Assembly: GCA_964344685.1 (NCBI GenBank)
Contig: CAYFOK010000007.1
Location: forward strand, 79,771-111,770
Reading direction: 5' to 3'
DNA length: 32,000 nt
Origin: an uncultured Candidatus Scalindua sp.
GTDB lineage: Bacteria; Planctomycetota; Brocadiia; Brocadiales; Scalinduaceae
The translations under genes and the position numbers were made by a program. This document shows, piece by piece, positions 5,649 to 30,898 of this stretch. The notes under the pieces were generated by a model. That model had not been told where the DNA came from. It worked only from the letters and a program-made list of their open reading frames with translations, and ran no database searches. The stretch's first letter is position 1, and the number at the start of each line of letters is the position of its first letter.

Positions 5649-5667
5649 GGTTGTTTCTTAAAATCAA
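5649..5667 (+). repeat. third, degenerate copy of the GGTTGTTTCTTA-N-ATCAA motif
   Basis: GGTTGTTTCTTAAAATCAA. The first 12 nt are identical to 17947-17958 and the orientation matches. Confidence 0.4.
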
Positions 5668-5866
5668 TGGGGGAAAAAGAGTATAAATTAAAGCTTCAGA
5701 TAATAAGAGGATTGGGGATCAGATAAAAATAGAATAATTATAGTTTTTATGACTATTTATTTGAGAAACACATTATCAAATCATTTTTAACTTTAATAAA
5801 AAAGGTGAGATGTGACCTCGTTCAGTTGTAATATAATTAAACTTAAAAGGTTACAGCTATTCTGCA

Positions 5867-6571: not shown

Positions 6572-6642
6572 GTTATTCTTTCAGCTAATGCTGAAATCAC
6601 TTGCCAAAATGCACCAACTTTTTGGACAAGTGGATTGATTTA

Positions 6643-7239: not shown

Positions 7240-7583
7240 AACAAGTTATTCAATAATTCCCAGGTAACACCACTATGGCAACGATATTCAGAAGAATCAA
7301 ATTACTATACTTCTTTATAAGGAACAATTGCAGTCTGAAATATCAAAATAGCATTTATAGCAGATTATTTTTTTAGCCTGAGTTGCAATTCACGATTCTT
7401 TACAAATTCATCAAATTCATTCTTTTGTAGGCCAAGATTTTTGTTAATTTTTATCCATTTCTATCTCCTTTATCTTGCCTACACACTTCTTTTCTGTTTA
7501 CGGTCACACCCTTTGGAGCGCTAATACCTAGCTTGATCGTGTCTCTTCATTTCATTAACAAACATTTCTTGATCATCATTTTA

Positions 7584-7982
7584 TTAAGTCCACTTTAGAT
7601 AGTCAGGTAATTCAGGGGAACCAAACTTTTCATTATATTCATCTTGAAATACCTTCTGTTTATCGAGAGCATCGTCCAGTAACCGTTTCCAATTATCCAG
7701 ATCGGTGCCAAATTGCTGAAAGTCATCGTCTACAAAATGAGCGTACCTGATAGTGCCTATTTCTAACTTTGTTGGTTTCCCCTCGACAAGGTCTTCAAAG
7801 TATAGTTTATCTCGGGTCATAGTTTTTTGTACATCTGTCCAATAGTAATGCGGTAGGTCTGATACAAATGTAAACTTTAGATAGTGTTTCTTGAAAAAAG
7901 ACTTTGCAAACACAGCGTAGACGTGAATATATTTCTCTCCCTCTTTGAAAATATCAACAAAATCTAATTTGTGGAGCCTCAT
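7584..7982 (-). CDS. hypothetical protein
   Basis: 132-aa ORF with AAGGAGG upstream of the ATG. I recognise no family. Confidence 0.5.
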   Translation of the reverse strand: MRLHKLDFVDIFKEGEKYIHVYAVFAKSFFKKHYLKFTFVSDLPHYYWTDVQKTMTRDKLYFEDLVEGKPTKLEIGTIRYAHFVDDDFQQFGTDLDNWKRLLDDALDKQKVFQDEYNEKFGSPELPDYLKWT

Positions 7983-8361
7983 TCTTTCACCTCCTTTTGC
8001 TCTCTATATTAGTTTATAGTATCTGGAATACTGGTTGTCCTGTTTTCCTGTATACGATCACCATGGCTTCCAAGTATCATCACCCTCTTTGTATGGCGTG
8101 AACAGAAAATACAAACTTAATGCCAATAACAGCCCACCGATTTTATTGCTGAAGAATATCATGGTTAACAGGGATAAAAAAACATAAAACCAAGCAAATT
8201 ATTCTAAATATTTTTATGTCTTTTTTGTTAATTATCATTGTTTTTCAAATCACCCTGTATTTCTTTTTTTCTAATTTAAAGGATACATCTAAACACCACA
8301 TTTCAACAGAAAAGCAACAACAAAAATAGCAAGCCGCCTTTAATATAAAGAGATTTTTTCT

Positions 8362-8670
8362 TTAATAATTATTCTTTTTTGTCTGAACCCATCCATATAG
8401 AAATACAAGCACGGTAATGATATTTATTACTGCCCACGCTTCACGAAATAAATGAATTGGTTCTATGGGGTTGTAGACAATAGCGATTACTATGAAGGCC
8501 ACAGTAATAAAGCCACAACCCTTTTCTTTGTAATATTGATAAGCGATATATGCAGCACACCCACAGATTGCCCAGCGCATAAGCTGATAGTAATAGTACG
8601 GCAGCGAAAGCAGTGCGATAAGTAACAAGGCTATCGGCCCAATCCATAACAGTTTATTTGTTTTTGCCAT
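8362..8670 (-). CDS. small multi-pass membrane protein
   Basis: 102 aa with three or four hydrophobic segments. Confidence 0.6.
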   Translation of the reverse strand: MAKTNKLLWIGPIALLLIALLSLPYYYYQLMRWAICGCAAYIAYQYYKEKGCGFITVAFIVIAIVYNPIEPIHLFREAWAVINIITVLVFLYGWVQTKKNNY

Positions 8671-8938
8671 GCCTTAAAATTTAATAAATGCAAAGGATAA
8701 GAAAGATACGAGAGATCTGTGCTCTATAATGAGCCTTCAATATATTCACCTAGATCTACCATTCCTTGCATGAAGTTGACACAATTACGACATGCCATAT
8801 GAGTACCTTTACATAAGTCTTCATTAATGATTTATCAAATTTGTAAAGTATGAATTTGGTGAAGATATTGACAATCACCCATTACCACGACGAGACTCTC
8901 TACGGTAATCAAGTATCTCTCGAAAGATGTCATGTTTC

Positions 8939-9856
8939 TCAAAGCCTTAAGTCATGCGACTTCATCCTCCGCCCATATTTCATGTAAAGTATCTCTCGAA
9001 GGCTGTCACGTTTCTCCCAGTATTCTAACTCTAGATGCTCAATGCCCATCTTTTTGTAACATAATGCAATATGACGGTAGCATTCTAACTTGGAATAGCT
9101 TGCATAGCTTACAACCTCAGGCTTCAGCTCTATAGCCTTCTTAAAATTCTCTATCGCCTCCTCATATAGGCTAAGCCCCTTCTGTACGTAACCAAGAGAT
9201 TGGTAGTAGAATGAATCCTTTGGATTCAGCTCTATAGCCTTCTTATAATTTTCTATTGCATCCTCATATAGACTATCCATGTGTTGTGCGTTGGCAAGTT
9301 CATAGTAGTAGTCTGCAACCTTTGAATTCAGCTCTATAGCCTTTTCATAATTTTCGATTGCATCCTCATATAGACTAAGCTTATGCTGTGCACGACCAAG
9401 GTAATAGTAGTAATCAGCAACCTCTGGATTCAACTGTATGGCTTTCTTACAATTCTCTATTGCATCATTATTTAGGCTATCCCCAATTGAACTATCTTCG
9501 TATTGTGCACGGCCAAGGTGATAGTAGTAGTCTGCAACCTCTGGATTCAGCTCTATAGCCTTCTTACAATTCGATGTTGCATCCTCATATTCACACAGAG
9601 GATATTGTGCACGGCCAAGGTAATGGTAGTAGTCTGCAACATCTGGATTCAACTGTATGGCTTTCTCACAATTCTCTATTGCCTCGTCATACTCCCCTTT
9701 TATAATATGCTCTTTCCCTTTGAAGAAATAAAAATCAGCATCTCTGACTTGTTCTAAAGCAGTAAGCCCTCTAATGACAAGTTCTTTTCGTACTTTTGGG
9801 TCGTACCTTGTAATGGCAGTCGATCTTTTTACAATAGCCTTGTTCTTCTCGGTCAT
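8939..9856 (-). CDS. tetratricopeptide (TPR) repeat protein
   Basis: 305 aa with about seven AIE(N)xKKAIELNPxxADYYYxLGxAQ units. The start codon is 1 nt after the stop of the upstream J-domain gene. Confidence 0.9.
   Translation of the reverse strand: MTEKNKAIVKRSTAITRYDPKVRKELVIRGLTALEQVRDADFYFFKGKEHIIKGEYDEAIENCEKAIQLNPDVADYYHYLGRAQYPLCEYEDATSNCKKAIELNPEVADYYYHLGRAQYEDSSIGDSLNNDAIENCKKAIQLNPEVADYYYYLGRAQHKLSLYEDAIENYEKAIELNSKVADYYYELANAQHMDSLYEDAIENYKKAIELNPKDSFYYQSLGYVQKGLSLYEEAIENFKKAIELKPEVVSYASYSKLECYRHIALCYKKMGIEHLELEYWEKRDSLREILYMKYGRRMKSHDLRL
9121..9700 (-). repeat. intragenic tandem DNA repeats (about 96-117 bp period) encoding the TPR units
   Basis: GGATTCAGCTCTATAGCCTTCTTAnAATT-type blocks recur at about 9121, 9226, 9322, 9424, 9541 and 9644. 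Confidence 0.8.
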
Positions 9857-9857
9857 A

Positions 9858-10748
9858 TTAGTATTCTACCTCTTGGATTATTTCTTTATACTCCGCAACA
9901 AGTCCATCTAGTAATGTCTGATTATCGTCGATCTCTTCTTTTATATTGTCTGCAAGTTCCTGTAGTAAATCCCTGTCCTCTTTTTTCGCATCATCAACTT
10001 TCACTTTCAATTTATAGGTCTCGTCTTCTTTCAAATCATCAAGTTCCGCATACCGTTTTGCAATAATTCCAAGAATGGTGTCATAGTCTGCCTTCAATCT
10101 GGCAAGCGTCTCCACTGGGGTCTCTTTAGCTATTTTCTCTTCTCGTTCTGCTCGACTCATATATTCTCTTAGGGTTCTTTGATCCTTATTCCTGTATGCC
10201 TCATTTATCACAGCCATGATACTATGATATTTTTTTCTCCGCTTGTCGTCTCTTGCCTTGTCTGGATGGAATTTAATAGCAAGCCTTCGATATAGTCTTT
10301 TTAGTTCTTCTTTATCTTCCGTGTTAAGAGTTGGACCACTTTCTTCTTGCTCCAGATATTCTCTATATTCATCTGCTGCCTCGGACGCCTCGCCTCCAAG
10401 ATCATTAATCTTCTGCCTTTCTTCAGTAAAAGTCTGATTTACTTCATCTTCAATGCTATCTAAATCATGTTGAGAAGTTTTTTTACCCTGAGCAAGGTCA
10501 ATCCTAAGCTGATATTCTTTCACTTTTAATTTTATTTTGTCAAGTTTCACATAAAGCAAGCCAACCCTTGAATTATATTCACCCAAGAATACATTCAATG
10601 TAATATTTATGTTCTGGACTTGGATTAATAACTCAGACGCCTCATTCTCTTTTTCCGCTATACGAGCTTTCCAAATATTTAATTCCTTCTGGACATCACC
10701 TGTAGAAGGAACTAATTTATTACCCTTTGCTTTGTTATTTTCTGCCAT
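9858..10748 (-). CDS. J-domain (DnaJ-like) protein with flanking coiled coils
   Basis: 296 aa. The central LKRLYRRLAIKFHPDKARDD...AVINEAYR segment carries the HPD tripeptide. No Gly/Phe or zinc-finger regions of full DnaJ are present. Confidence 0.85.
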   Translation of the reverse strand: MAENNKAKGNKLVPSTGDVQKELNIWKARIAEKENEASELLIQVQNINITLNVFLGEYNSRVGLLYVKLDKIKLKVKEYQLRIDLAQGKKTSQHDLDSIEDEVNQTFTEERQKINDLGGEASEAADEYREYLEQEESGPTLNTEDKEELKRLYRRLAIKFHPDKARDDKRRKKYHSIMAVINEAYRNKDQRTLREYMSRAEREEKIAKETPVETLARLKADYDTILGIIAKRYAELDDLKEDETYKLKVKVDDAKKEDRDLLQELADNIKEEIDDNQTLLDGLVAEYKEIIQEVEY

Positions 10749-11039
10749 CGTGGAAACATTTTCCGATATTTTTCAACTTAAGATTATTTTACTTACACAT
10801 AAGTAATGTCAATCATTATACTTTGCAGGAAAGTTCATCTATTTGAATCCTTAAAAGAATAAACTTAATTTATAAAAGCATATCCTACCATCTAATGGTT
10901 GATTAATTTGTAGAGTGAAGTTGCTAGCGGTATAGTAGTGAGGATAGATATCAAAATCAAGATTAAAAACAAGGACTTACGACACATTTGATTAATTTGC
11001 AAGTATTTAATAAATAAAAACTTACAAAATAGAATGTTA

Positions 11040-11058
11040 GTTGTTTCTTGGTATCAAG
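11040..11058 (+). repeat. GTTGTTTCTTGGTATCAAG: downstream copy of the ori-like 19-mer
   Basis: 18/19 identical to 17948-17966 in the same orientation. On the minus strand it reads CTTGATACCAAGAAACAAC. Confidence 0.5.
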
Positions 11059-11152
11059 GTAAAGAAAGCATGGTTACTTCACCTTTTTTATTAAATTAAA
11101 AAGATTTGGTAACATACTTCTAAAAAAAAATTTAGAAACCATAGTTTTAAAA

Positions 11153-12061
11153 CTACAATTTCTCAATTTTTATTTCATCATTAATCTTTTTTTTATCAGT
11201 AACAGAAATCTTCACTTTTTTTAATCCTTTCTTGGTCTTCACAACATAATGACCGTCAATTATACCAATGATTTTATACATGTTATTATCCTCAACCTCT
11301 AATTCTTCAGGTTCAAGTTGTGGTTCCTGAACATCATCAATAACAGTCGCAGGAGTACGAATGTTATGCTTATTCATATTATGAAAGATGTTCATAAAAC
11401 CAAATCGAAAAATCAATCCAGCACATACAACCAAACCAACAAATATTAAAATATGCTTGAACGGAATACTTTTAATCTTTTCACCTTCACCTATTATCAT
11501 TGAACAGTACATTCCAAAGACTTTTTGATCTTGTTTTATTCTTTTTGTCTTGAAGCATTCATCTCCTGAGTAGAATTTATAGGTAAAACTTTTACCAATC
11601 GAGTTAGAACGCCTTACCGCTTTTATTTCATACTCTGCCAGCTCTCTCAACTCTTTAGCAAGGCAACGAGTATCCTGGGTTATTAAATAGATATCACACC
11701 CCAAATGGCGATGCATTTGAAAGAAAAGAAAAACATTAACATCATAAAATTTTCTATGAAAATAGTTACCACTCTGCGCTTCGTCAATAATATAAATAAC
11801 ATTAGAGTTCATGCAAAAAGTCTCTTGGTATTTATTATTGAAAAATGTAGAGAGCCCACCAGCATCAGCAATGAACTTATCAAGATCATCTCCAAGTTTC
11901 ATATTCTTGATATTTGTATATACTCTTACATCAACATCTCTTGCCTTAGGAACCCATTTGTCTAATTCATCAGACCAAGTATAATAAGATTTTAATACGT
12001 GATTAACAGCATAGTACGTTTTACCGGAACCAATTTTACCTTGAATTAATCGTATGGCCAT
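11153..12061 (-). CDS. Zot / pI-type filamentous-phage assembly ATPase
   Basis: 302 aa. N-terminal P-loop IQGKIGSGKTYYAV, Walker B VIYIIDEAQ, a central TM helix (ILIFVGLVVCAGLIFRFGF) and a short C-terminal domain give the standard Zot architecture. Confidence 0.85.
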   Translation of the reverse strand: MAIRLIQGKIGSGKTYYAVNHVLKSYYTWSDELDKWVPKARDVDVRVYTNIKNMKLGDDLDKFIADAGGLSTFFNNKYQETFCMNSNVIYIIDEAQSGNYFHRKFYDVNVFLFFQMHRHLGCDIYLITQDTRCLAKELRELAEYEIKAVRRSNSIGKSFTYKFYSGDECFKTKRIKQDQKVFGMYCSMIIGEGEKIKSIPFKHILIFVGLVVCAGLIFRFGFMNIFHNMNKHNIRTPATVIDDVQEPQLEPEELEVEDNNMYKIIGIIDGHYVVKTKKGLKKVKISVTDKKKINDEIKIEKL

Positions 12062-12062
12062 T

Positions 12063-13453
12063 TTATGTTTTCCTCACAAATTTAAGTCTCTGATTTTCAA
12101 AGTCCTTCTCATTAAAGAGAATTTCGACAGAGAGAAGCAAGATTAACTCTGTTTTAGTTTTGTTGATATCCTCTGACCTGAACATTTTTCCAAGATATGG
12201 AATATCACCAAGAAGCGGTATTTTCTGATTTTTTTGTTAGAAGAATTTTCCATTAAACCACCTACATAAATTTTCTGCCCATCATTAATCAATGTAGTCA
12301 TTTCAAGTGAGTTTTTAGTAAACGATGGTGAGTCAATCAAAGGGTTTTGAACGGTTTGAACAATGTCACTGATCTCTTGACTAAGATATAATTTAACAAC
12401 ATTGTTTTCTTCAACGTCAACCTTGACGTTTAGTAAAACGCCAACGTCTCGATATTCGATATTTTCAGATCGTAAACCATTTGCAGATACAGAAGTACCT
12501 TTTCGGATAGGTTCTTCACGTCCAATTTTAATAACGGAGGTCTGACCGTCCTGGACTAATACATGTGGCTTTGAAAGAATCTCTACTTTACTTTCAGAAT
12601 TTAAAATGGTGATGAAAGTGTTTACATCTCTATGAAAAGTAAAAGCTTTGAGCCCTTTACCAGCAAGACCAGTAGTCAAAGACGTTATTCCCTCTGTTAA
12701 TAGAGATATTTGACCGCCTCTATTATTTTTCGTCCTAAAGAAGTACTCGACACCATATTGAAGAGCATCGTTTAAAGTGACTTCCATAATTGTGAATTCT
12801 ACAAGTACCTGTTTTGGCCGTTTGTCAAAGGTTTTAATAACCTCCTTAACCTTATTATAATCGTCTTTACCGGCTTTTATGATAAGTACGTTAATGCTTT
12901 TGTTTTCAGTAATAGCAATTTCCGGGAAGACATCATTCAGTAAAGATTTTAGATTTCCAGAGCTTTCATATTGCAAACGATACAGATAAACATTTTTTGT
13001 GTCATCCGGTGAAGTTTGTATATTAAGATCATTCAGGTTTTCGTTATTATGAATTCCATATAACGCACCGTTTTTTATTAGTTGATAGTTTTTACTATTT
13101 AAAACGGTACGAACCATTTTCAGAATTTCATCTCTTTTAAATTTACCTTTTATTTCGATATCAACATTACCGATCAAATCATCAACGATAATGTAATTCT
13201 CTTTGATGATTCCCATCAAAAGACTAACAACATCTTTGAGTTCAACTTTCTCAAATTGCATATCAACGTCAATACCACCTCTTTTAAGTTCGGGCTTTAC
13301 CTTGCCCTCTTTTACTTTCCATTGCCAGTTTTCGACATTTTTTGTTTTAGCCGTATTGGTAAAAAGTTTTTTCTCTGGTTTCTTTTTTATGAGCGCACAA
13401 CCCGGAGCACAAAAACATATTACAAATACTAAGACACAGATTTTTCTCAGCAT
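12063..13453 (-). CDS. pIV/GspD-type secretin, interrupted by a frameshift at an A7 tract (12229-12235)
   Basis: The secretin core is readable (VLVEFTIMEVTLNDALQYGVEYF). The annotated frame ends at 12143 in nonsense sequence. The -1 frame after the A7 run reads NQKIPLLGDIPYLGKMFRSEDINKTKTELILLLSVEIL, the canonical secretin C-terminus, and stops at 12063-12065, 1 nt before the Zot ATG. The likely start is the ATG at 13453 (AAGGAG upstream), giving the signal MLRKICVLVFVICFCAPGC. Confidence 0.85.
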
Positions 13454-13559
13454 TTTTACAGTCTCCTTTTCAATAAGGAAATTTCTGCCAGTTAAAAAAT
13501 TCACGCCAAAGGTTAAGTTTTTTTGTCATGCTTTTTAAACTTCTGGAAACGTGTTGATT

Positions 13560-13805
13560 TTAATAACAATATAAAAAACCCAAAACAAAAAGGAGTTGTG
13601 ATTTTTGTTTTGGGTTTTTTACTAAAAGATCGGGGACGTACCGGTAACTTTTTTGATGAGAGTTATAACAAACCCAACCACTCAATAAATCCTTTTTAAG
13701 TAGTTCAATACAATAAGAGAGGCTTACAACTTTTTTAAGTCTGTTATATTCATCTTTTTTACTTAGTTTGTAAGTATTAGTATTAACCTTCTTCTTAGTA
13801 ATCAT
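13560..13805 (-). CDS. hypothetical basic protein
   Basis: 81 aa with an ATGA overlap onto the upstream ORF. Its last ~20 codons are a read-through of a perfect hairpin, so the 3' end is doubtful. Confidence 0.35.
   Translation of the reverse strand: MITKKKVNTNTYKLSKKDEYNRLKKVVSLSYCIELLKKDLLSGWVCYNSHQKSYRYVPDLLVKNPKQKSQLLFVLGFLYCY
13573..13620 (-). terminator. perfect 19-bp stem / 10-nt loop hairpin flanked by A/T runs
   Basis: AAAAAACCCAAAACAAAAA ggagttgtga TTTTTGTTTTGGGTTTTTT. It looks like an intrinsic terminator on either strand. Confidence 0.5.
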
Positions 13806-18507: not shown

Positions 18508-19533
18508 ATGCGTGTAGCAATGTATTATAATAACAGTGACATCAGAGTGGAAGAGATGCCAACGCCGCAGATTGACCGTGGTGAGGTTTTATTAAAATCA
18601 ATTGCCTGTGGTATCTGCGGCAGTGACGTAATGGAGTGGTATCGCGTCCACAAAGCTCCGCTTGTACTTGGTCACGAGGCAACCGGTGAAATTGTTGAAG
18701 TCGGAGAGGGTGTTAAACGATTCAAAAAAGGAGACAGGGTCTTTGTATCTCACCATGTTCCCTGCAATACGTGTCATTATTGTCTAAACGGCAACCACAC
18801 CGTATGCGACACTTTACGCAGCACGAATTTTGATCCCGGCGGCTTTGCTGAATATGTACGAGTACCGGAAATTAATGTCGACAGAGGTGTCTTTGTACTT
18901 CCTGACAATATGTCACTGGAAGATGGGACGTTCATCGAACCACTGGCATGTGTTGTTCGCGGGCAACGAGTAGCGCGTCTTGAACCCGGACAGACAGTAG
19001 TTGTTATCGGCAGTGGAATGTCAGGACTGCTTCACATATTACTTGCCCGGTCACTGGGAGCAGGAAAAATTATTGCTACTGATATAAGTGAATATCGAAT
19101 GGAGATGGCAGGAAAGTTTGGAGCTGATTCTGTTATTAATGCAAAAGACGACCTCCCTTCTCACCTGCTCAAGCTTAACAGTAACAGGCTTGCAGATTGT
19201 GTGATAGTGACTGCCGGAGCCGACTCTGCTCTGTATTCAGCTCTAAAATCTGTAGACCGTGGAGGCACTGTACTGTTCTTTGCACCCGGTGGCCCTGATA
19301 CTCATCTTTCCGTACCATTTAATCAATTCTGGAAAGATTGTATAACACTATTACCTACATACGGTGCCAGCCCCTTAGACATAGAGGTGGCAATTAAGTT
19401 GATCAGCTCTCAGCGTGTTCCCGTACAGGATATGATTACCCACAGTCTGGGCCTGGCAGAAACCCAACAGGGCTTTAAGCTGGTTACTGAAGCCAAAGAT
19501 TCTATAAAAGTGGTCATCAACCCTCATAAATGA
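18508..19533 (+). CDS. zinc-dependent alcohol / threonine / sorbitol dehydrogenase family (MDR) oxidoreductase
   Basis: 341 aa. CGICGSD and GHEATGEIVEVGEGV (catalytic Zn), CNTCHYCLNGNHTVC (structural Zn), GSGMSGL (Rossmann). Confidence 0.9.
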   Translation: MRVAMYYNNSDIRVEEMPTPQIDRGEVLLKSIACGICGSDVMEWYRVHKAPLVLGHEATGEIVEVGEGVKRFKKGDRVFVSHHVPCNTCHYCLNGNHTVCDTLRSTNFDPGGFAEYVRVPEINVDRGVFVLPDNMSLEDGTFIEPLACVVRGQRVARLEPGQTVVVIGSGMSGLLHILLARSLGAGKIIATDISEYRMEMAGKFGADSVINAKDDLPSHLLKLNSNRLADCVIVTAGADSALYSALKSVDRGGTVLFFAPGGPDTHLSVPFNQFWKDCITLLPTYGASPLDIEVAIKLISSQRVPVQDMITHSLGLAETQQGFKLVTEAKDSIKVVINPHK

Positions 19534-19588: not shown

Positions 19589-20395
19589 ATGAAATCTGTT
19601 CGCCTAGTCGCTGACAAAATAAAGGATAACCTGCGTACAAATATAATAGGCAGGGAGGTAATTACACTTGAGCGTACAGCGTCTACAATGGACATTGCAA
19701 AGGAGATGCTCAAAGATGGCGTTATAGAGGGAACAACAATCTTTGTTGAAGAGCAAACCCGGGGACGAGGACGGACAGGGAAAGAGTGGTTCTGTAAGAA
19801 AGGGAAGGGCTTGTTACTATCTGTTGTATTAAGGCCGGCAATTCAACCTGAGAAATCATATCTTTTAACAGTTTTTACTGCAGTTGCAATCGTAAAAACT
19901 ATCAGGGATATGTTCAAATTACCGGTTGAAATAGACTGGCCTAATGACATTGTGATCAATAAAAAGAAATTAGGTGGAATAAGTGTAGAAACGCAAAATC
20001 ATACCGGAAATCCGAGTGACTATACTGTAGGAATTGGTATTAATGTCAATTTGAAAAAGCATGAATTACCGGAACAGATCGATCAACCGTCAACATCTCT
20101 TACAATTGAAAAGGAGACATTTATTGACCGTACCAATTTTGCAAGGGCATTACTGCAGAATCTGGATTCATGGTACTTAATCTTAAAGGATGAACGTTAC
20201 GAGCATATTGTGGAGAAGTGGCAGGAATTTTGTTTGAACATTGGCAGAATGGTTCATGTACGTAATGCCAAAAAAGATTATGCAGGAATTTTTCTAGGGA
20301 TATCAAATGATGGAGAATTGATCTTATTGCTGGACAATGAGCGCAAAATAAAATTAAAAGTCGAACACACTATTATGGAAGATTACAACTTATAA
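19589..20395 (+). CDS. birA: biotin--[acetyl-CoA-carboxylase] ligase (group I, no N-terminal HTH)
   Basis: 268 aa. QTRGRGRTGKEW is the GRGRxGRxW biotin-ligase signature, followed by KKLGGISVE. Confidence 0.9.
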   Translation: MKSVRLVADKIKDNLRTNIIGREVITLERTASTMDIAKEMLKDGVIEGTTIFVEEQTRGRGRTGKEWFCKKGKGLLLSVVLRPAIQPEKSYLLTVFTAVAIVKTIRDMFKLPVEIDWPNDIVINKKKLGGISVETQNHTGNPSDYTVGIGINVNLKKHELPEQIDQPSTSLTIEKETFIDRTNFARALLQNLDSWYLILKDERYEHIVEKWQEFCLNIGRMVHVRNAKKDYAGIFLGISNDGELILLLDNERKIKLKVEHTIMEDYNL

Positions 20396-21167: not shown

Positions 21168-21929
21168 CTATTTCTCTTGAGCAACTATCTCTTTAGCTAA
21201 AGCCTCATAATCCAGAGCACCATTAGAATCCGGAGCGTATGATGTAATTGGCATACCATGACTTGTTGATTCTGAGAGTTTAATATTCTTTCTAATGGTA
21301 GTGGAAAAAACTTTACCTTCAAAATATTCTTTGATCTTGTCAAGCACTGCCTGTCCCAGCTTTGTCCTGCTATCATACATACAAGGTATTATTCCCGTAA
21401 TCTCCAGCGAGCTGTTCAACCGCTTCTTGATAACATCAAATGTCTGTAACAGTTTGCTTACTCCCTGCAAAGCAAAAAACTCCGTTTGTAACGGAATGAA
21501 AATTTCGTTAGCCACGGTAAGTGCATTCAGGGTCAGAAGCCCTAAAGAAGGCGGACAGTCAATTAGAACGTAATCATACTTTTTAATCATCTCGCCAATG
21601 TAAAACTTTACGATTGTTTCACGCCCTACCGTGTTAACAAGCTCTACCTCTGCACTTGCAAGATCAATGTCTGAAGGGATAAGGTCCAGACCTTTTATAG
21701 CTGTTTTTGTCAGTACTTCGGAAGCTTTCTTCTTGCCGCACATTATCTGATAAACAGAAGAGTCTTTTCCCTGGACATTAATACCGAAATGAATACTCAA
21801 ATTGGCTTGAGGATCGAGGTCAATGAGAAGTACCTTTTTACCAAGCGCAGCCAGACATGCTCCAACATTCGCAGTTGAAGTCGTTTTTCCTACCCCACCT
21901 TTTTGATTTATGAACGCAATACTACGCAT
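21168..21929 (-). CDS. parA: ParA/Soj-family ATPase
   Basis: 253 aa. Deviant Walker A NQKGGVGKTT, then LLIDLDPQANLS and VLIDCPPSLG. Confidence 0.9.
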   Translation of the reverse strand: MRSIAFINQKGGVGKTTSTANVGACLAALGKKVLLIDLDPQANLSIHFGINVQGKDSSVYQIMCGKKKASEVLTKTAIKGLDLIPSDIDLASAEVELVNTVGRETIVKFYIGEMIKKYDYVLIDCPPSLGLLTLNALTVANEIFIPLQTEFFALQGVSKLLQTFDVIKKRLNSSLEITGIIPCMYDSRTKLGQAVLDKIKEYFEGKVFSTTIRKNIKLSESTSHGMPITSYAPDSNGALDYEALAKEIVAQEK

Positions 21930-22432
21930 TCTTACCTTCTATCTTTCTGTTTTTTGTAACATATATATAATGTTAAGAATTCTAACCATACAAAATATGG
22001 TTGTCAAGTATATTTATATAAAAAACCCTACTAATGTTTATAGAAAGTCCTGTGATTTCACAGACTTACACATTTTTGCCGGTTATGCAGTTCCTACGTT
22101 CCTTGTTATACAAGCATCAAAAAGAGACATATGGGCTGCACTTTCTACACTAATTTCGATCTCATGCCGTTTGGAAGGATTATTTATTTATAACAAAGAC
22201 AATTATCCACAACGGGATTCAATCTAAATTGTCCTAAGATTGTTATTGACATATCGATATAAGTTTGTTATTTTCCCTGTTTCAATAATTTTGTTTGTGG
22301 CATAATCAAATTTCATCAATACTTTTAGACCAGCAATTTTTACAGAAACGGCTTCATAGTGCCAGTTTATTTATATTTGACTGGTATTATGAGTATAGTT
22401 AGATTTCTGGATGTTTTTAGGGAGGTAACATA

Positions 22433-22687
22433 TTGTCTGCAGAGAACTTAGAGAAGGATATTACTGCTATTGTAGCTGAAGTGACTGAGCTGGATGAGAA
22501 TGAGATATGGGAGAAAAGAGATGCCGATTTTTTTAAGGATTTAGAGATAGATTCCTTATTGGCATTGGAAATTCTGGCCCTTATAGAAAAGAAATTTAAA
22601 GTTCAAATTCCGGAAGAAAAACTCGTAGATATTACATCATTGAATGCAACAATTGAAATGACAAGGTCTACACTTGAAGGAAAATAG
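22433..22687 (+). CDS. acyl carrier protein
   Basis: 84 aa with TTG start after GGGAGG. The phosphopantetheine site is in LEIDSLLALEI. Confidence 0.85.
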   Translation: MSAENLEKDITAIVAEVTELDENEIWEKRDADFFKDLEIDSLLALEILALIEKKFKVQIPEEKLVDITSLNATIEMTRSTLEGK

Positions 22688-22788
22688 AAAACGAATGTAA
22701 CACGCTTCTTACAACATCTATTTGCCTATCCGCAAACAATTAAAGCGGTCAGGCAGTGGCTATTAAATAGAACGAAAGGTTATTACTA

Positions 22789-23238
22789 ATGTTGAACTTT
22801 GAGGAAGTAAGAGAGCTGGTTCCTCAAAAATACCCCTTCTTATTTATCGACAAAGTTATTGAGCTTCAAAAAGAGAGCAGAATTGTTTGCCAGAAGAATA
22901 TCTCTGGCAACGAGTCTTTCTTCACTGGACACTTCCCTGATTTTGCCATTATGCCGGGAGTTCTAATTGTAGAAGCCCTGGCGCAAGCCTCTATTATCCT
23001 CTTCAAAAAGAGCTTTGATACTGAGCAGTATAAAGGAAAGGTCTTTTTGTTAGCTTCCGCCAACGTACGTTTTTCTAAACCTGTTTTTCCCGGTGATCAG
23101 CTATTACTGGAAATTGAAATAGAAAAGGTTATTTCCAGTGCGGCAATTGTTAAGGGAGTTGCTAAGGTGGGAGACAAAGTTGTAACAAAAGCAACTTTGA
23201 GTTTTGGTGTTGCAGACAAAGATGCATTAACAGACTGA
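22789..23238 (+). CDS. fabZ: 3-hydroxyacyl-ACP dehydratase
   Basis: 149 aa. The hot-dog signature [23 protein letters not shown] carries the catalytic His and Glu. Confidence 0.9.
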
Positions 23239-23270
23239 AAGTATTAGTATTTGCAATAAAAATAAGAACT

Positions 23271-24491
23271 ATGGATAAAAGAATTGTAATTACCGGTGTG
23301 GGTGTCATTTCTCCAATTGGAAATCAGAATGATATATTTTGGGATGCATTAATTTCCGGCACGTCCGGTGTGTCTGAGGTCACATCATTCGACACTACTC
23401 CTTTTAAAGTACATAGAGGCTGTTTCGTCAAAGATTTCAATTATGATAGTTATATAAGTAATGGTTCAAGCCGGGAGATCGGTAAAGGCTCTCAATTTGC
23501 CGTTGCTGCAGCAAAGCTCGCTATTGATGACTCTAATATAGGTTTAAACAATATCGATCCGGAACGGGCAGGCGTTTCAATTGGAACAACTGCTGGTGAA
23601 ATTCAGATTCTGGAAAAAGTAAACTATATTAGGCACGAGAAGGGAGATGAAAATGTCGATCCCAGCCTGTTCCTTAAACACCCATGCGTAAATATGCCAT
23701 CTAACATATCTATTGAATTTGGTTTTAAGGGGCCAAGCACTATAATTCCTACTGCATGTGCAGCTGGAAACTATGCTATCGGTTATGCATGTGACTTGAT
23801 AAAATTAGGAAGAACAGACATAATGCTGGCCGGAGGCTCAGATCCGTTTTCTAAAGTGGCTTTTGTTGGTTTTAGCAGATTAAACGCAATCGCTCCGGAG
23901 ATTTGTCAGCCATTTGATAAAGACAGAAAAGGCCTGTTAGTTGGTGAAGGTGCCGGAATGCTGGTATTGGAATCCCTGGAAGGTGCACTGGCAAGAAATG
24001 CAAACATATATGCAGAAATCCTGGGTTACGGCCTGAGCTGTGACGGATATCACATAACAATTCCGCATCCGGAAGGAAATGGTGTTACTTCGGCAATGGA
24101 AAAGGCTTTGCAAAATGCCAAAATCAGTCCCGAAGATGTGCAATATATGAGTGCACATGGTACTGGAACGGTAGCCAACGACAAAGCTGAAACAATATCA
24201 ATAAAGAAAGTCTTTGGTGAACATGCAAAGAACCTGGCCATAAGCTCTATAAAATCAATGCTTGGTCATACAATGGGAGCTGCCAGTGCCATAGAGGCTA
24301 TTGCGTGCGCTTTAGCCATTAAAGAGAGTGTTGTACCACCAACTATAAACTATGAGACAAAAGACCCTGAGTGTGACCTTGATTTTGTACCTAATGTCAA
24401 ACGTGAAATGCAGGTTGATGTTGCTATGAATAACGCTTATGCTTTTGGTGGCAACAATAGCAGCCTCATACTAAAGAAGTACACAGGTTAA
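23271..24491 (+). CDS. fabF: beta-ketoacyl-ACP synthase II
   Basis: 406 aa with an intact Cys-His-His triad: [25 protein letters not shown]. Confidence 0.9.
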
Positions 24492-24535
24492 AAATAAGAA
24501 TTAAGATAAAAATTTTTTAGAGGTTAATTTGATAT

Positions 24536-25771
24536 ATGGATAATCGGCTGGTAATAACAGGAATAAGTATCTTGTCGCCAATCGGTGTTAACAAGGATGA
24601 GTTCTGGACCAATTTGACGAATGGTGTTTCCGGTATAAAAGATATCACGTTATTTGATGTCTCCAAATATAAAAGTAAAAAAGCCGGTGAAATATCAGAC
24701 TTTGATGCTAAAGAATACCTGGGCAAGAAGGGTATTCGCCACATAGACAGGACATCGTTATTAGTGTCTTCCGCGGCTAAACTTGCCATGGATGATGCCG
24801 GTCTAACTCATGATATTTACGATGCTGATGAACTGGGGATAGCAATCGGGTCAACATATGGCAGCATTGACAGTATCAGCTCATTTGACTTGGAGGGATT
24901 ACAGGAAGGGCCGACTTTTGTCAACCCCATGGCGTTCCCAAACACAGTCCTTAATGCACCAGCGAGCAGGGCATCTATTTTCTGCAATGCGACCGGTTTG
25001 AATTCTACAATATCTACAGGAACTGCCAGCGGGTTGGATGCTATCATTTATGCTTCAGATTTCCTGAAACTTGGCAGAGGAAAGGCTGTGCTAGCCGGTG
25101 GAGTTCATGGTTTAACTGCTGATATTTTCTGGGGAGCTTACAGTTCAGGAATATTGTCAGGGTGCAACAATGGAGACATCGAAATTTCTGCACCATTTGA
25201 TAAAAGACGTAATGGCTTTATAATTGGCGAAGCAGCCGCATTGCTGGTAATAGAAAGAGTTGAAGACGCGTTGGAACGCAATGCACAAATATATGCTGAG
25301 ATAAAAGGATACGGATGTACGTTTAATCCTGACAAGGTCTCTCATGTCGATATGGACACCACACAAGGAGTAAGGTGTATCTCCATGGCAATCGAAGATG
25401 CCGGAATTAGTTCTGACGACATTTCTTACATATCCGCATGTGCAAATTCCAGTGTGACAGGCGACAAAATGGAAGCTAAAATCATTAAAGACTATTTTGG
25501 TGATAACGCTGAAAAGATACCTGTGAGTGCAATAAAGTCTATGACAGGAGAATGCCTTGACGCATCAGGATCATTACAGTGTGTTGCCGGTATTTTGGCA
25601 ATTAAAAATGGTATTATCCCTCCAACAATAAACTTTCAGGAAAAAGATGAAGAGTGCAATCTGGATTGTGTACCCGGCAATAGCAGAGAATCAGAAATTA
25701 AAAATGTACTAGTCAACTCTTTTTCAGACACAGGTAACATTTCAACCGTAATCATCTCAAAATATTCATAA
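24536..25771 (+). CDS. ketosynthase-like protein lacking the catalytic triad (chain-length-factor-like partner)
   Basis: 411 aa, colinear with the upstream KS. At the triad positions it reads STGTASGLDA (Cys to Thr), SACANSS (His to Cys) and GECLDAS (His to Glu). Confidence 0.85.
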   Translation: MDNRLVITGISILSPIGVNKDEFWTNLTNGVSGIKDITLFDVSKYKSKKAGEISDFDAKEYLGKKGIRHIDRTSLLVSSAAKLAMDDAGLTHDIYDADELGIAIGSTYGSIDSISSFDLEGLQEGPTFVNPMAFPNTVLNAPASRASIFCNATGLNSTISTGTASGLDAIIYASDFLKLGRGKAVLAGGVHGLTADIFWGAYSSGILSGCNNGDIEISAPFDKRRNGFIIGEAAALLVIERVEDALERNAQIYAEIKGYGCTFNPDKVSHVDMDTTQGVRCISMAIEDAGISSDDISYISACANSSVTGDKMEAKIIKDYFGDNAEKIPVSAIKSMTGECLDASGSLQCVAGILAIKNGIIPPTINFQEKDEECNLDCVPGNSRESEIKNVLVNSFSDTGNISTVIISKYS

Positions 25772-25789
25772 CTTCAAGCGACAGTTTTC

Positions 25790-27223
25790 ATGAGTAATTT
25801 TTCCCTGAACAAATCTGAAATAGAATCCAAGTACGATGTGATCATTCTGGGAGCCGGGATTGCCGGTCTAATCTGCGGAACTTTTCTGGCAAAACATGGG
25901 AAGAAAGTGCTTATTGTTGAACAACATAGTATTCCCGGGGGTTATTGTACCTCTTTCAAAAGAAAAGGTTTTATTTTTGATGCGGCAGTTCACCATATTG
26001 GCGGATGTGGAAAATGGAGCGTAGTAGGCAGGTGCCTTAAAGAACTAGATATAAATATTAATTTTCTACATCTCGATCCAATGGATAGTATACATTTCCC
26101 TTCATTTTCCATTGATGTACCTGCAGAGATTGACGAATATATAGATCTGCTGAAGGAACGGTTTTCCTCAGAAAGTGATAAAATAACACTGTTTTTTAAG
26201 GAGTTTATTAAATTATACAGGGCCACTTTCAGCATAGAAAAGCATGATATGCTAATCAAATACCAGGACACTACTTATAAGGAGATGCTGGATAATTTCT
26301 TCTCAAACGAACAGCTCAAGATGACACTATCTGCACAGTGGGGGTACATAGGCTCTCCTCCTCATGAGGTTTCGGCTATTGGTATGTGTCAAATGCTGGT
26401 AAATTATCTGAAAGACGGGGCTTATTTCCCTGTTGGCGGCACACAGAATTTCGCTGATGCCATCACTCAGAAATTTATTGACTATGGCGGTCACATTATG
26501 CTATCTTCTAGCGTCGATAAAATACATACAGATGGCAATATTATAAAAGGAGTTACAACGAAAAAAGGAGGGAAAATTCCGGCTGAAACCTTTGTCTCAA
26601 ACATTGATCCCAAACAAACTTTTTTCAGCTTATTAGATAAAGATATCGTCGAGAACTCATTCTTTCGCAAGATCAGGAATATGAAAGAAAGTGTATCATT
26701 CTTTTTACTATACCTTGGCCTTGATAATAAAATAGACCTCAAAGAGCTGAAAAGAGGTTTTTACCATACATCTAATGATTTAAGCTTTTCCGGCAATGAC
26801 TGGTTTTATATTTCCGTTCCTACGGAAGTTGATTCAAGTCTGGCACCTGATAACAAACAAATAATTTCTGTTGTTGTCTCGTCAAGAGACAGTTACGACG
26901 ACATAGAAGATTGGGCAGCATATAAAGAGAAAATGAAAAAACATACAATAAACTACCTGGAAAACTTTGTACCAGATATTCAGGATCATATCGAGGTAAT
27001 AGACGCTGCCACACCTAAGACTCTTTATCGATATACTTACAACTCAAAAGGCGCAGCCTATGGCTGGGCCGTTACCGTAGACCAGACATGGTCAAACAGA
27101 CTTTCACACACAACACCCTTCAATAATCTTTTTCTGGCCGGGCACTGGACAAATCCGGGGCCGGGGATATGTGCGGTTGTATCCTCTGGTTGGAGGGTAG
27201 CTAATATGATTTTAAATAATTAG
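25790..27223 (+). CDS. phytoene-desaturase-family (CrtI-like) FAD-dependent oxidoreductase
   Basis: 477 aa. N-terminal dinucleotide fold YDVIILGAGIAGL..VLIVEQH..PGG, and a C-terminal LFLAGHWTNPGPG motif typical of the CrtI/amine-oxidase family. Confidence 0.85.
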   Translation: MSNFSLNKSEIESKYDVIILGAGIAGLICGTFLAKHGKKVLIVEQHSIPGGYCTSFKRKGFIFDAAVHHIGGCGKWSVVGRCLKELDININFLHLDPMDSIHFPSFSIDVPAEIDEYIDLLKERFSSESDKITLFFKEFIKLYRATFSIEKHDMLIKYQDTTYKEMLDNFFSNEQLKMTLSAQWGYIGSPPHEVSAIGMCQMLVNYLKDGAYFPVGGTQNFADAITQKFIDYGGHIMLSSSVDKIHTDGNIIKGVTTKKGGKIPAETFVSNIDPKQTFFSLLDKDIVENSFFRKIRNMKESVSFFLLYLGLDNKIDLKELKRGFYHTSNDLSFSGNDWFYISVPTEVDSSLAPDNKQIISVVVSSRDSYDDIEDWAAYKEKMKKHTINYLENFVPDIQDHIEVIDAATPKTLYRYTYNSKGAAYGWAVTVDQTWSNRLSHTTPFNNLFLAGHWTNPGPGICAVVSSGWRVANMILNN

Positions 27224-27234
27224 GAGGATAAAAA

Positions 27235-28698
27235 ATGAGAAAAATGATGCTTATCAATCCACATCCCCCAGGAAGGCATGGTGAGGAAAGTATAACTGTC
27301 ATAGTTCAAATGCCTTTAAACCTGGCATACATTGCAGCCCTTACACCGGGTGATTGGGAATTTGACGTAATCGATGAAAATATGGAACTGGCCATTGACG
27401 ATAACGGAGAAATCACATTTGACACAGTGGATATGGTTTGTATCACTTCTGTGACATATCAAGTGTCAAGAGCTTATAAAATTGCTGAGGCCTGCAGAAA
27501 AAAAGGTATGACTGTAGTAATGGGTGGTATACACGCTTCAGTAGTGCCTGAAGAAGCTTCAAAGTATGTAGACGCAATTTTCATCGGTGAAGCAGAAAAC
27601 CTCTGGCCACAAGTCATTAAAGATTTTGAAAACGGTGAACTCAAAAAGAGGTACGATGGTGGCCTGCCGGGTTTGTCAGAGATGAAACATGTATTTCCTG
27701 ACAGGGAACTCCTGAAGAAAAAATATGATTATAAATTTTCATCTATTGTAACAACAAAAGGTTGCCCAAATTACTGTGATTTCTGCAGCGTACCGACCTT
27801 TCAGGGGAAAAAATACAGAGAAAGGCCGTATGAGGATGTTCTGGATGAGATGGAAGCAACAGATTACAAGGGGCTCATGTTCGCAGAAGACAATTTTTAC
27901 GGTCATAGTAAGAACTCTGCCAACAGGGCAAAAGCACTCTTTCGTGGAATGATAGAAAGAGGTGTTAAAAAGGACTGGCTTGGATTTACTGCTCTTAATA
28001 TATCAAAGGATCCAGAAGTACTTGATCTTATGGCAAAGAGCGGAAATTTTGGATTTCTCTGCGGCATAGAATCAACAAATGAAGCAGTCTTGGAGAAGAT
28101 GAATAAAACTACTAACTTAAGGATTGGTGCTGATAAATATTATGACAGCGTTCAAAAAATACACGATCACGGCCTTGTCGTCTGGGGATCAATTGTCCTT
28201 GGTGCAGATGGTGATGACAAAGATTCATTCAAAAGAATGACGGAGTTTGTGCTCGCAAATAATATTGATGTTCTTACTTTCGGCATTAATTGTCCGTTTC
28301 CGAAGACAGCACTTTATGCAAGGCTGGATTCTGAAAAGAGGATCTTCAGAAAGAATTATCCTGAAGACTGGAAATATTACGATACTGCACATGTGGTTCA
28401 CAGACTTGTTGATATGACACTGGAAAATTTCATCGAAGGTATGCAATATATGTATGATAATCTATATGCAGGTGACAATCTGAGATTGAGATTCAGGAAA
28501 TCTCTTCAAACTATTGGCAGTACAACACATGGTAAGCGTAATGCAATGTTCGGTTTCAGAGTCGGTTCTGATTGGATACAGGTATTTGATCAAGTACTTG
28601 AAAACCTTCACAAACTATACGATTCGGGTGATTATTACCAGGATTGGTACAAGAGCAGTGCTGTTACCGTGCCATCAGACAAGGGTGTAGCTGTTTAA
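27235..28698 (+). CDS. B12-binding-domain radical SAM enzyme (class B)
   Basis: 487 aa. N-terminal cobalamin-binding-like domain (DMVCITSVTY...VVMGGIHAS), then the CxxxCxxC cluster TKGCPNYCDFCSVP. A strong RBS (TAGGAGG) lies 12 nt after the upstream stop. Confidence 0.9.
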   Translation: MRKMMLINPHPPGRHGEESITVIVQMPLNLAYIAALTPGDWEFDVIDENMELAIDDNGEITFDTVDMVCITSVTYQVSRAYKIAEACRKKGMTVVMGGIHASVVPEEASKYVDAIFIGEAENLWPQVIKDFENGELKKRYDGGLPGLSEMKHVFPDRELLKKKYDYKFSSIVTTKGCPNYCDFCSVPTFQGKKYRERPYEDVLDEMEATDYKGLMFAEDNFYGHSKNSANRAKALFRGMIERGVKKDWLGFTALNISKDPEVLDLMAKSGNFGFLCGIESTNEAVLEKMNKTTNLRIGADKYYDSVQKIHDHGLVVWGSIVLGADGDDKDSFKRMTEFVLANNIDVLTFGINCPFPKTALYARLDSEKRIFRKNYPEDWKYYDTAHVVHRLVDMTLENFIEGMQYMYDNLYAGDNLRLRFRKSLQTIGSTTHGKRNAMFGFRVGSDWIQVFDQVLENLHKLYDSGDYYQDWYKSSAVTVPSDKGVAV

Positions 28699-28716
28699 TT
28701 CAATTCATTTAAAAAT

Positions 28717-28768
28717 AAAAGGCACAGAAAGAAACTTTGTTATTGCATGTTATTTTTCTGTGCCTTTT
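28717..28768. terminator. bidirectional terminator-like hairpin between convergent genes
   Basis: AAAAGGCACAGAAA ...24-nt loop... TTTCTGTGCCTTTT (14-bp stem) with A/T runs on both sides. Confidence 0.5.
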
Positions 28769-28822
28769 TCTTACTCAATTATAAAAGGTCCTTGCTTACT
28801 GATCAGAAAGTTTGCTTAAAAT

Positions 28823-30775
28823 TCATCTCCTGTGTTCCCATCTCCATTTATCAATTTTCCGCTTTTTATCAAACCTTCTTTTCATTAACTTATTATCCAT
28901 CGGCCTCTGAAAGTCTCTTCTGTGTTGTGTAGGCCTTAAGGATCTCACCGGACGTACGTATCCGCGGTCATTGACCGGACTCCAACTGACAAAGCCATAA
29001 CTAAAATTCACATCCCATGCCGCATTAACCCCCTTTTTCCTGTCTCCGGTCCATATCCATTCCTGATACCTGTCGAAAACAGGTGAAATAAATAATCCAG
29101 CGTTCTTTTTGTCTGGCTCCAACAGCGACATTGCCTCTTCAAGTGTTGGCAAACGCCAATCATGATATCCGGCGTAGCCTCTGTTATTAAACTTCTGCAG
29201 AAGCCTTTTCGCTCCATTCCAGGTTACATCTCTTGGAGTACCGGACTGGTGCCACATCAATCCGGTAGAATGATCTATTACGACATTTTCATTATTGATT
29301 ATATTTACCTCATAATTGTGACTGATAGTACTGTACCCCTTGAACCCGTTCCTATTTTCCTCATTTATTGCTATATGCTGTACCGACTGCGCCTGTATCA
29401 GAGACAAATCTCTTTTATAGTGGGAACGAAGGGATACTCTTTGGTTTTCCCATTGGTCAGTGTGATGTGGCGGCGGTGGAGGTAGAGACGTTTTCTCCAT
29501 TTCCAACTGCCCCCATTCCTCTTCAATCAGTCTTCTTTCCTTGTCTAATTCCTGCCATTCCTCTTCAAGTTTTTGCCTTTCTTCATTCAAGCTACTCTCT
29601 CTCTCCTGCATCTCCATCTCTACTCTTGATATTTCCTGTTCTGCGGTCAAATTATGACCTGCCTCTTCTTCCAGATGCCTCCACTCCTCCTCAATCAGTC
29701 TTCTCTCCTTCTCTAGACTCTGCAACTCTTCTTCAATCCTTTGCCTCTCTTCTTCCAGTATTTTATCATCATTATCCTCAACGTTGTCCTGCTGTTCGTC
29801 TATTACAGTAGACTCGCTTAATACGAATACTTTTACATCTTTTTCACTTTCTTCGCTCTTTTCCGGGGAAGCTCCCGTGACTTCTTCAGTAGTTGTTGTA
29901 GAAGCTGCCTTATCCTCATCATCCAATACGAAAATAAAATCACCTTTATCTAACTTTGGATGACGTATCCTTCCATACTGTGGGTGCTGGCTGCCATTAC
30001 TGTAATTTACCACGCTGGTATCCAGGTACATACCCAATTCCGAACCGGTAATGTACCCATCTTCATTATAGTCCGCATCTCCTTTTATTCCCTGTATTAA
30101 AACCGTATTGAATATGCTGTCGTCAGGAACCTGTTCATCTTGATTACCGGCTGTTATAAACTGTCGGACCGGACGGTTACTCTTCTCAGATATATCGCTT
30201 GGCACACTTTTTAAGGACGCAAACACAGATCCTGAAAAACACGAATCAAACAACATGAGCACATGCTTCGATTTTATTCGTAATGCGTACGTCTCAATCA
30301 AATTCATACTGATTGCTTTTTCGCTGAACCCAATAAGATCCTGATTAAGGACCGGACAATCTTTAGGTATGATGTATCCCAATTTTTCCCCTGTAGCCAG
30401 GGTCTCCGTTTCACCATGACCGGAAAAATAGAACAGAATCGCACGGTCTTCCTCTCTTCCCAATTCATAAGCCAGATTATTTAATTCCTCCTTGAGCTCT
30501 CTGGAGGTTGGATTTAAGAGCATGCTTACGTTAAACCCGAAATCTTCCAGCGCTTTCGACGTTTCCCTGATATCTTCCTCAACCCCCTGCAGATCAGGCC
30601 AGTAATCGTAATTACCAACCCCCACCACCAGTGCATAATAATCCTTGTATAGGTAAAGGCTCTTGCCCTCTTTTGAGACAACACTTATGCCGCGTGTGGA
30701 TGCAAATAGTTGTAACGGAACAATGAGAAGCACCAGTATGAATGCTAAAAAACACAATTGAATAGTTATTCTCAT
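28823..30775 (-). CDS. secreted caspase-like (peptidase C14) protein with a coiled-coil linker and a DUF1566-like C-terminal domain
   Basis: His/Cys dyad context ILFYFSGHGE and VLMLFDSCFSG. The signal peptide is MRITIQLCFLAFILVLLIVPLQLFAS, from the ATG at 30775 (GAGG upstream); the track start is 30814. An E/R/W-rich duplicated coiled coil follows. The C-terminal HDWRLPTLEEAMSL is typical of DUF1566/Lcl-like domains. Confidence 0.8.
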   Translation of the reverse strand: MRITIQLCFLAFILVLLIVPLQLFASTRGISVVSKEGKSLYLYKDYYALVVGVGNYDYWPDLQGVEEDIRETSKALEDFGFNVSMLLNPTSRELKEELNNLAYELGREEDRAILFYFSGHGETETLATGEKLGYIIPKDCPVLNQDLIGFSEKAISMNLIETYALRIKSKHVLMLFDSCFSGSVFASLKSVPSDISEKSNRPVRQFITAGNQDEQVPDDSIFNTVLIQGIKGDADYNEDGYITGSELGMYLDTSVVNYSNGSQHPQYGRIRHPKLDKGDFIFVLDDEDKAASTTTTEEVTGASPEKSEESEKDVKVFVLSESTVIDEQQDNVEDNDDKILEEERQRIEEELQSLEKERRLIEEEWRHLEEEAGHNLTAEQEISRVEMEMQERESSLNEERQKLEEEWQELDKERRLIEEEWGQLEMEKTSLPPPPPHHTDQWENQRVSLRSHYKRDLSLIQAQSVQHIAINEENRNGFKGYSTISHNYEVNIINNENVVIDHSTGLMWHQSGTPRDVTWNGAKRLLQKFNNRGYAGYHDWRLPTLEEAMSLLEPDKKNAGLFISPVFDRYQEWIWTGDRKKGVNAAWDVNFSYGFVSWSPVNDRGYVRPVRSLRPTQHRRDFQRPMDNKLMKRRFDKKRKIDKWRWEHRR

Positions 30776-30898
30776 AGAAATACCTCTATATATTATTTGG
30801 TATTCAATGTTCACTAAAAATGTGGTTCAATCCATCAGATTTGAGCTAGATCCTCTGTAAAAAATCTATTTCATACTTTTTGTCAGTAAATCTCAGGC

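Follow-up and report, generated by a model that had tools for sequence, protein, structure and literature searches.

The triad-less ketosynthase homologue of a Candidatus Scalindua Cluster I locus is very probably amxFabFmut, the chain-length-setting partner of amxFabF2

How ladderane lipids, among the strangest of natural products, are made is an unsolved problem. The main candidate for their biosynthesis is a set of anammox genes called "Cluster I" (bioRxiv 10.64898/2026.05.19.726425); its link to ladderanes is circumstantial. One of the few parts of this candidate cluster for which experimental data exist is a pair of ketosynthase (KS) homologues, one of which is dead. The dead one has, of course, been noticed before. 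Rattray et al. (2009; PMC2649909) reported that Kuste3606, Kuste2805 and Kuste3348 are FabF/FabB paralogues with deviant active-site residues, and concluded that normal elongation is not possible for them. Their proposal was that a ladderane moiety is made separately and then brought into fatty-acid synthesis by the deviant FabF. Javidpour et al. (2016) later termed kuste3606 a "non-canonical FabF."

Data on the heterodimer come from a preprint of May 2026 by Granatino et al. (bioRxiv 10.64898/2026.05.19.726425). Here, the dead subunit is amxFabFmut. Its catalytic Cys is replaced by Val in most anammox species and by Thr in Scalindua brodae, while the His residues are replaced by Asn, Glu or Cys. 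The Kuenenia proteins amxFabF2 and amxFabFmut are inactive singly and co-purify on co-expression; only as a pair do they decarboxylate malonyl-amxACP and form acetoacetyl-amxACP. No activity was detectable with isolated Kuenenia amxFabFmut, and isolated Brocadia amxFabFmut crosslinked with none of the probes. Crystal structures of the Brocadia fulgida heterodimer, by itself and together with C8-amxACP (PDB 9S5H/9S5I), show one active-site tunnel, partly lined by Phe135, Thr138 and Val139 of the dead subunit, and mutations of these residues shift the preference among C6, C8 and C16 probes. The orthologous complex favors C6-C8 probes over C16, and hexanoyl-ACP was not elongated by it in vitro.

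The same preprint (Granatino et al., 2026) holds several further structural results. In 9S5I, both subunits are in contact with amxACP. A second tunnel in the Brocadia structure leads to the mutated triad and holds a bound PEG; it has no access to a catalytic triad. When S. brodae amxFabFmut is crystallised alone, it forms a homodimer in which a helix-loop-helix motif is disordered. The specificity for the heterodimer is ascribed to opposite surface charge in Brocadia, and the authors state that their own data refute the 2009 proposal.

The window, the whole stretch of DNA that was analysed, comprises 32,000 nucleotides from an uncultured Candidatus Scalindua whose genome is assembled in 46 contigs (3.48 Mb). 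Open reading frames with their Pfam and NCBIfam assignments give six closely spaced genes on the plus strand, between positions 22433 and 28698. The series begins with the dedicated acyl carrier protein amxACP (22433-22687, with a TTG start; PF00550, E 5e-14), which differs from S. brodae amxACP (PDB 7QV0 chain D) at two of 82 aligned residues (E 3e-45). It continues with amxFabZ, the anammox-specific 3-hydroxyacyl-ACP dehydratase (22789-23238; PF07977), near-identical to the amxFabZ structures 8AYI, 7QV0 and 8AYB (E about 1e-83), all of which are identified as S. brodae entries in PMC10139942. Then come the two ketosynthase homologues. KS1 (23271-24491), the active subunit amxFabF2, has an intact Cys163/His296/His333 triad, passes the cut-off of the KAS-II model NF005589 (455 bits against 387), and aligns gaplessly with 9S5H chain B, the Brocadia fulgida amxFabF2 (E 4e-201). 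KS2 (24536-25771) is the triad-less homologue that concerns us here.

Two further genes complete the series. The flavoenzyme of the phytoene-desaturase family (CrtI-like), the "PDH" of Cluster I, lies at 25790-27223 (PF01593) and matches TIGR02734 crtI_fam with E 2e-48, under the cut-off of that model. The B12-binding radical SAM (rSAM) enzyme lies at 27235-28698 (PF02310 and PF04055); its best NCBIfam match is TIGR04072 rSAM_ladder_B12, at 85.7 bits far under the cut-off of 360. Because the ACP and FabZ are so near to solved S. brodae proteins, and because KS1 and KS2 match the chains of 9S5H, the six genes are the Scalindua copy of Cluster I (KustE3603-3608), and KS2 occupies the place of amxFabFmut within it.

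Upstream of the cluster lie a Zn-dependent alcohol dehydrogenase (18508-19533), a gene of the BirA-like biotin/lipoate protein ligase family (19589-20395), and, on the minus strand, a ParA-type ATPase (21168-21929). Downstream, also on the minus strand, is a caspase-domain protein that carries an Lcl domain at its C-terminus (28823-30814). None of these four flanking genes is kept beside Cluster I in the other families examined. A scan of 21900-28900 for promoters and terminators gave counts equal to those in shuffled sequence.

The KS2 reading frame is on the plus strand and translates without a stop into 411 amino acids, which contain the whole of both Pfam ketosynthase domains (PF00109 at residues 3-245, PF02801 at 253-367). 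Against TIGR03150 (fabF) it covers model positions 1-406 of 407 with 354.5 bits, under the cut-off of 493.75. With that score, and with the triad absent, KS2 is not a canonical FabF (KAS II, TIGR03150). An AlphaFold2 monomer model (pLDDT 88.6, pTM 0.89) superposes on Bacillus subtilis FabF with a TM score of 0.90 at 40% identity. The only stretch of low confidence in this model is residues 105-140.

A preliminary description of this DNA had held that the two paralogs align without difficulty, and that KS2 has exchanged Cys for Thr, His for Cys, and His for Glu. Both statements stand. In BLASTP the two paralogs are 37% identical from end to end (E 9e-89), and TACAAG is paired with TGTASG, SAHGTGT with SACANSS, and GHTMGAA with GECLDAS. 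Thus, C163, H296 and H333 of KS1 fall opposite T163, C302 and E339 of KS2. A formal alignment with FabF, which the same description had named as a check, leaves these residues where they were: in phmmer against B. subtilis FabF (PDB 4LS6), T163, C302 and E339 again face the Cys and the two His residues of that enzyme. The same pairing, gap-free at the three triad sites, comes from the solved orthologue, chain C of 9S5H (B. fulgida amxFabFmut; E 9e-174). A shift of register that would restore Cys/His/His was considered and set aside, as four alignments, independent of one another, and the structure model agree on the register. Judged by its sequence, KS2 alone should be unable to carry out condensation because the Cys that accepts the acyl group and both His residues that serve decarboxylation are missing.

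What natural history has done with these positions can be read from 115 full-length amxFabFmut sequences. None of the 115 has a Cys-His-His triad. The Cys position is occupied by T in 59, V in 47, I in 5 and E in 4, and all 59 of the Thr sequences are at least 84% identical to KS2 of the window, which limits Thr to the closest Scalindua clade. The first His is replaced by Cys in 99 sequences and by Asn in 16. The second, by contrast, is Glu in every one, with Cys as the next residue each time. The question had been posed in advance whether Thr, Cys and Glu are conserved in all orthologues; this proves true of Glu, but not of Thr or Cys. As far as sequences can tell, Thr163 and Cys302 are lineage-specific, and Glu339-Cys340 is the constrained remnant of the site.

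The most conserved part of KS2 lies elsewhere, in the motif that would form tunnel and interface. This helix-loop-helix motif (codons 105-145, positions 24848-24970 on the plus strand) contains Phe134-Pro-Asn-Thr137-Val138, of which Phe134, Thr137 and Val138 are the counterparts of Phe135, Thr138 and Val139 in the Brocadia tunnel. Across the same 115 orthologues, positions conserved at 99% or more make up 138 of 411 in the whole protein and 30 of 41 in the motif. This pattern would fit selection on a dimer interface and a tunnel wall rather than on catalysis. The low confidence of the monomer model in the same region would likewise fit a motif that is disordered without its partner.

The closest named homologues of KS2 belong to Candidatus Scalindua species (86-90% identity), and the Brocadia proteins are about 65% identical. 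The order ACP-FabZ-FabF2-FabFmut-PDH-rSAM is kept at 16 Scalindua loci and at four loci from two other families of Brocadiales; at these four, FabF2 is 68-73% and FabFmut 60-66% identical to the window's proteins. Gene order also touches a small point in the preprint, which places amxFabFmut "just upstream" of its partner amxFabF2. At each of the 20 related loci, as in the window, it lies immediately downstream, and the published wording appears to be a slip. In a phylum sample of 301 genomes, with orthologues taken at 60% identity or more, amxFabFmut was found in 14 of the 15 genomes of the window's order and was absent from the remaining 285. The fifteenth genome (G296, of family f3 in the same order, ~94% complete) has a best match of 36% identity in place of an orthologue; perhaps the assembly has a gap here, or perhaps Cluster I is missing from this member of the order. 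A further locus, from a Logan assembly (L030:644-11079, SRR32147499), has the six-gene order of Cluster I at 44-59% identity with Glu/Gly/Glu in its dead KS, and carries two more B12 radical-SAM genes and another KS beyond the six. It belongs either to a deep-branching relative of the anammox bacteria or to an organism outside them that carries the complete cluster.

Since triad-less orthologues number 115 of 115 and the gene is intact in 14 of the 15 genomes of the order, neither chance nor gene decay is the source of the triad loss. How the lineage arose was followed among 1.84 billion representative proteins. The nearest relatives of KS2 outside anammox bacteria are 36-49% identical, mostly triad-less, and usually have Glu at the second His position. 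Some relatives, of ~800 amino acids, contain two domains; all 39 tabulated (among P0126-P0275) consist of an intact N-terminal KS followed by a triad-less C-terminal KS'. Relatives named Omnitrophota are 41-46% identical. At one locus (L031), KS' stands beside a short-chain reductase, a FabA/ApeI-like dehydratase and an FAD enzyme, with no rSAM gene.

Trees were built with FastTree (168 rows) and with an IQ-TREE mixture model (60 rows) from a sample chosen by similarity to KS2 and with the root unknown; they speak to clustering, not to direction. KS2 and the orthologues from Brocadia and other anammox bacteria form one clade (99* in FastTree, 94% SH-aLRT in IQ-TREE), and amxFabFmut lies among foreign triad-less proteins inside a starred clade. 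KS1 falls within a starred clade together with the genome's other partner KS and the N-terminal domains of the KS-KS' fusions. One half of the fusion P0147 groups with FabF2, and the other half with FabFmut. One branch of the IQ-TREE tree (SH-aLRT 99) divides all sequences that bear the triad from all that lack it; the FastTree tree requires four triad changes, of which starred branches force two. A recent, anammox-specific duplication and decay of FabF was rejected on two grounds: KS2 is nearer to foreign triad-less proteins than to KS1, and the IQ-TREE split lies on one branch. As these trees have it, the KS1/KS2 pair descends from an old and widespread KS/KS' module that also occurs as single-chain fusions.

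The same genome holds a second adjacent pair of KS and dead KS, on contig 7 at bases 5371-13709 (L029), ~95 kb upstream of the window. Here, the genes run acpS, B12-rSAM, KS, KS', an OYE/FadH-type flavoenzyme, enoyl-CoA hydratase and FabG. The KS (7250-8617) has an intact triad, and the KS' (8819-10051) has Phe/Asn/Glu at the triad positions. This KS' is the closest paralogue of KS2 in the genome, at 39% identity. The counterpart of this locus in Rattray et al. (2009; PMC2649909) is kuste2802-2805.

Taken together, these observations make it very probable that KS2 is the Scalindua orthologue of amxFabFmut (KustE3606/Broful02170/Scabro02228), the obligate heterodimer partner that sets chain length for amxFabF2. 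Here, KS2 would keep the thiolase fold of a KAS-II enzyme and would most likely form an obligate heterodimer with the product of the gene upstream, amxFabF2, which would contribute the sole active site of the pair. The helix-loop-helix of KS2, through Phe134, Thr137 and Val138, would supply part of the wall of the acyl-binding tunnel, and KS2 would also help to form the surface on which amxACP docks. The chain lengths that the pair accepts would thereby be set by KS2. The KS-KS' fusions speak for such a pairing as Rosetta-stone evidence. By analogy, the Scalindua pair is expected to behave like its Kuenenia and Brocadia orthologues, and we infer that its product feeds ladderane lipid synthesis. 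An inactive partner, resembling a chain-length factor, for the adjacent KS on a dedicated ACP is what the preliminary description had suggested; the suggestion agrees with what has been demonstrated for the Kuenenia and Brocadia orthologues, and KS1 and KS2 match the two chains of the Brocadia heterodimer. The same description had also raised polyene-type chemistry as a possibility. On the other side stand the homodimer that S. brodae amxFabFmut forms when crystallised alone, the failure of the orthologous pair to elongate hexanoyl-ACP in vitro, the circumstantial nature of the link to ladderanes, and a crude linear tally of charges over the helix-loop-helix and partner-helix segments (KS2 residues 108-141 and 192-207 and the aligned KS1 segments). 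In this tally the opposite charges described for Brocadia are not evident, as the helix-loop-helix segments come out at -2 for KS1 and -4 for KS2; it is one-dimensional, not electrostatics.

Other roles for a dead ketosynthase can, of course, be imagined. The invariance of Glu339 and Cys340 over 115 orthologues invites the thought that KS2 acts as an independent enzyme whose chemistry is not Claisen condensation, either as Rattray et al. put forward (PMC2649909) or with Glu339-Cys340, joined in Scalindua by Cys302, as a new active site. The PEG-binding second tunnel to the mutated triad in Brocadia would suit such an enzyme. That tunnel, however, has no access to a catalytic triad, and the old site offers no conserved reactive set, with T, V, I or E in place of the nucleophile and C or N in place of the first His. 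Moreover, activity was undetectable in the isolated Kuenenia protein, no probe crosslinked to the isolated Brocadia protein, and the authors of the preprint regard the 2009 proposal as refuted by their data; an independent enzyme is thus very improbable. Glu339-Cys340 and the second, non-catalytic tunnel might instead be a site for a pathway intermediate or a regulator, for example a strained ladderane precursor meant for the rSAM or desaturase-like enzymes, and this is unlikely.

KS2 might also be an adaptor bound to KS1, whose main work is to recruit the desaturase-like or radical-SAM enzymes, or to hold acyl-ACP for them. Strict co-occurrence and a fixed order with the PDH and B12-rSAM genes speak for an adaptor, as does the contact of amxACP with both subunits in 9S5I. 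Yet some related triad-less partners are encoded in operons that have no rSAM gene, and the shift in probe-length preference on mutation of the dead subunit's tunnel residues is how a chain-length factor behaves; such an adaptor is still less to be expected than an independent enzyme. Least credible of all, and close to negligible, is a functionless duplicate of the neighboring KS in decay, for which the loss of all three catalytic residues is the argument. Every orthologue is a full-length intact reading frame, identity across the order (60-66%) is like that of FabZ and PDH, and 138 positions are at least 99% conserved. Nor is KS2 a recent duplicate, because it is nearer to foreign triad-less proteins (46-49% identity) than to its neighbor (37%). 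A chain-length-setting partner of amxFabF2 is the reading that the evidence prefers.

This locus is then a further Scalindua copy of a published protein, and adds no new principle. That amxFabFmut is an inactive partner is already known: its deviant site was recorded in 2009, and biochemistry and crystal structures accounted for it in 2026. The gain is comparative: the constrained residues of the dead site are Glu339 and Cys340, not Thr163 or Cys302. Further, the existence of an old and widespread KS/KS' module beyond anammox bacteria tempers the claim that this is a chain-length factor specific to producers of ladderanes.

The best-known dead ketosynthases are the chain-length factors (CLFs, or KS-beta) of type II polyketide synthases. 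In aromatic type II systems, CLFs carry Gln at the Cys position, and are associated with decarboxylative priming. Like them, KS2 is a ketosynthase fold that has no catalytic Cys and is encoded beside an active KS. CLFs such as ActI-ORF2 (1TQY chain B), Iga12 (6KXD-6KXF) and AntE (6SMO/6SMP) heterodimerise and shape the acyl tunnel, as the amxFabFmut orthologues do. The Gln itself is absent. KS2 has Thr at this position (T163), just as the preliminary description had remarked, and the 115 orthologues have T, V, I or E, never Gln. Unlike the CLFs, KS2 stands in the context of a fatty-acid-type ACP and FabZ, not of an aromatic polyketide pathway. Its best solved relatives, by sequence and by model, are FabF enzymes among the best 60 sequence and best 50 fold matches listed (the latter from a Foldseek copy of the PDB to 8 April 2026, which did not include 9S5H). 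Among these same best 60 and best 50 matches, the KS-alpha chains 1TQY_A, 6KXD_A and 6SMO_B are present and the known CLF chains are absent, and membership of the actinomycete CLF family was rejected on this basis. KS2 would work like a CLF without being a member of the CLF family.

Two other comparisons bear on KS2. The "non-canonical FabB" of the Kuste2805 type (kuste2802-2805 operon; Rattray 2009; Javidpour 2016) is, like KS2, a triad-less partner of a KS. It belongs, however, to a different subclade of the triad-less lineage in the trees, and its operon differs from Cluster I in having no ACP, FabZ or PDH, and in having an OYE-type reductase, enoyl-CoA hydratase and FabG. No heterodimer data for a pair of the kuste2804/2805 type were found. 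The KS-KS' didomain proteins (~800 amino acids; for example P0155, from a metagenome-assembled genome of Acidobacteriota) place an intact KS before a triad-less KS, which is the gene order of the window; they differ from the window pair in being one fused chain, and in coming from other phyla.

Nearest of all are the amxFabFmut orthologues themselves. KS2 shares with them its position in the same six-gene cluster, the loss of the triad, and Glu in place of the second His. Its differences are at the level of lineages only: Thr rather than Val, Ile or Glu at the Cys site, and Cys rather than Asn at the first His. The Thr of KS2 is the state that the preprint gives for S. brodae, and its Cys is one of the His substitutes named there. 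A physical heterodimer with amxFabF2, active as a pair only, is known from the Kuenenia and Brocadia orthologues; the other marks of amxFabFmut are all present in KS2: a KAS-II fold with a replaced triad, orthology, the neighbors of Cluster I, and a host among the Brocadiales.
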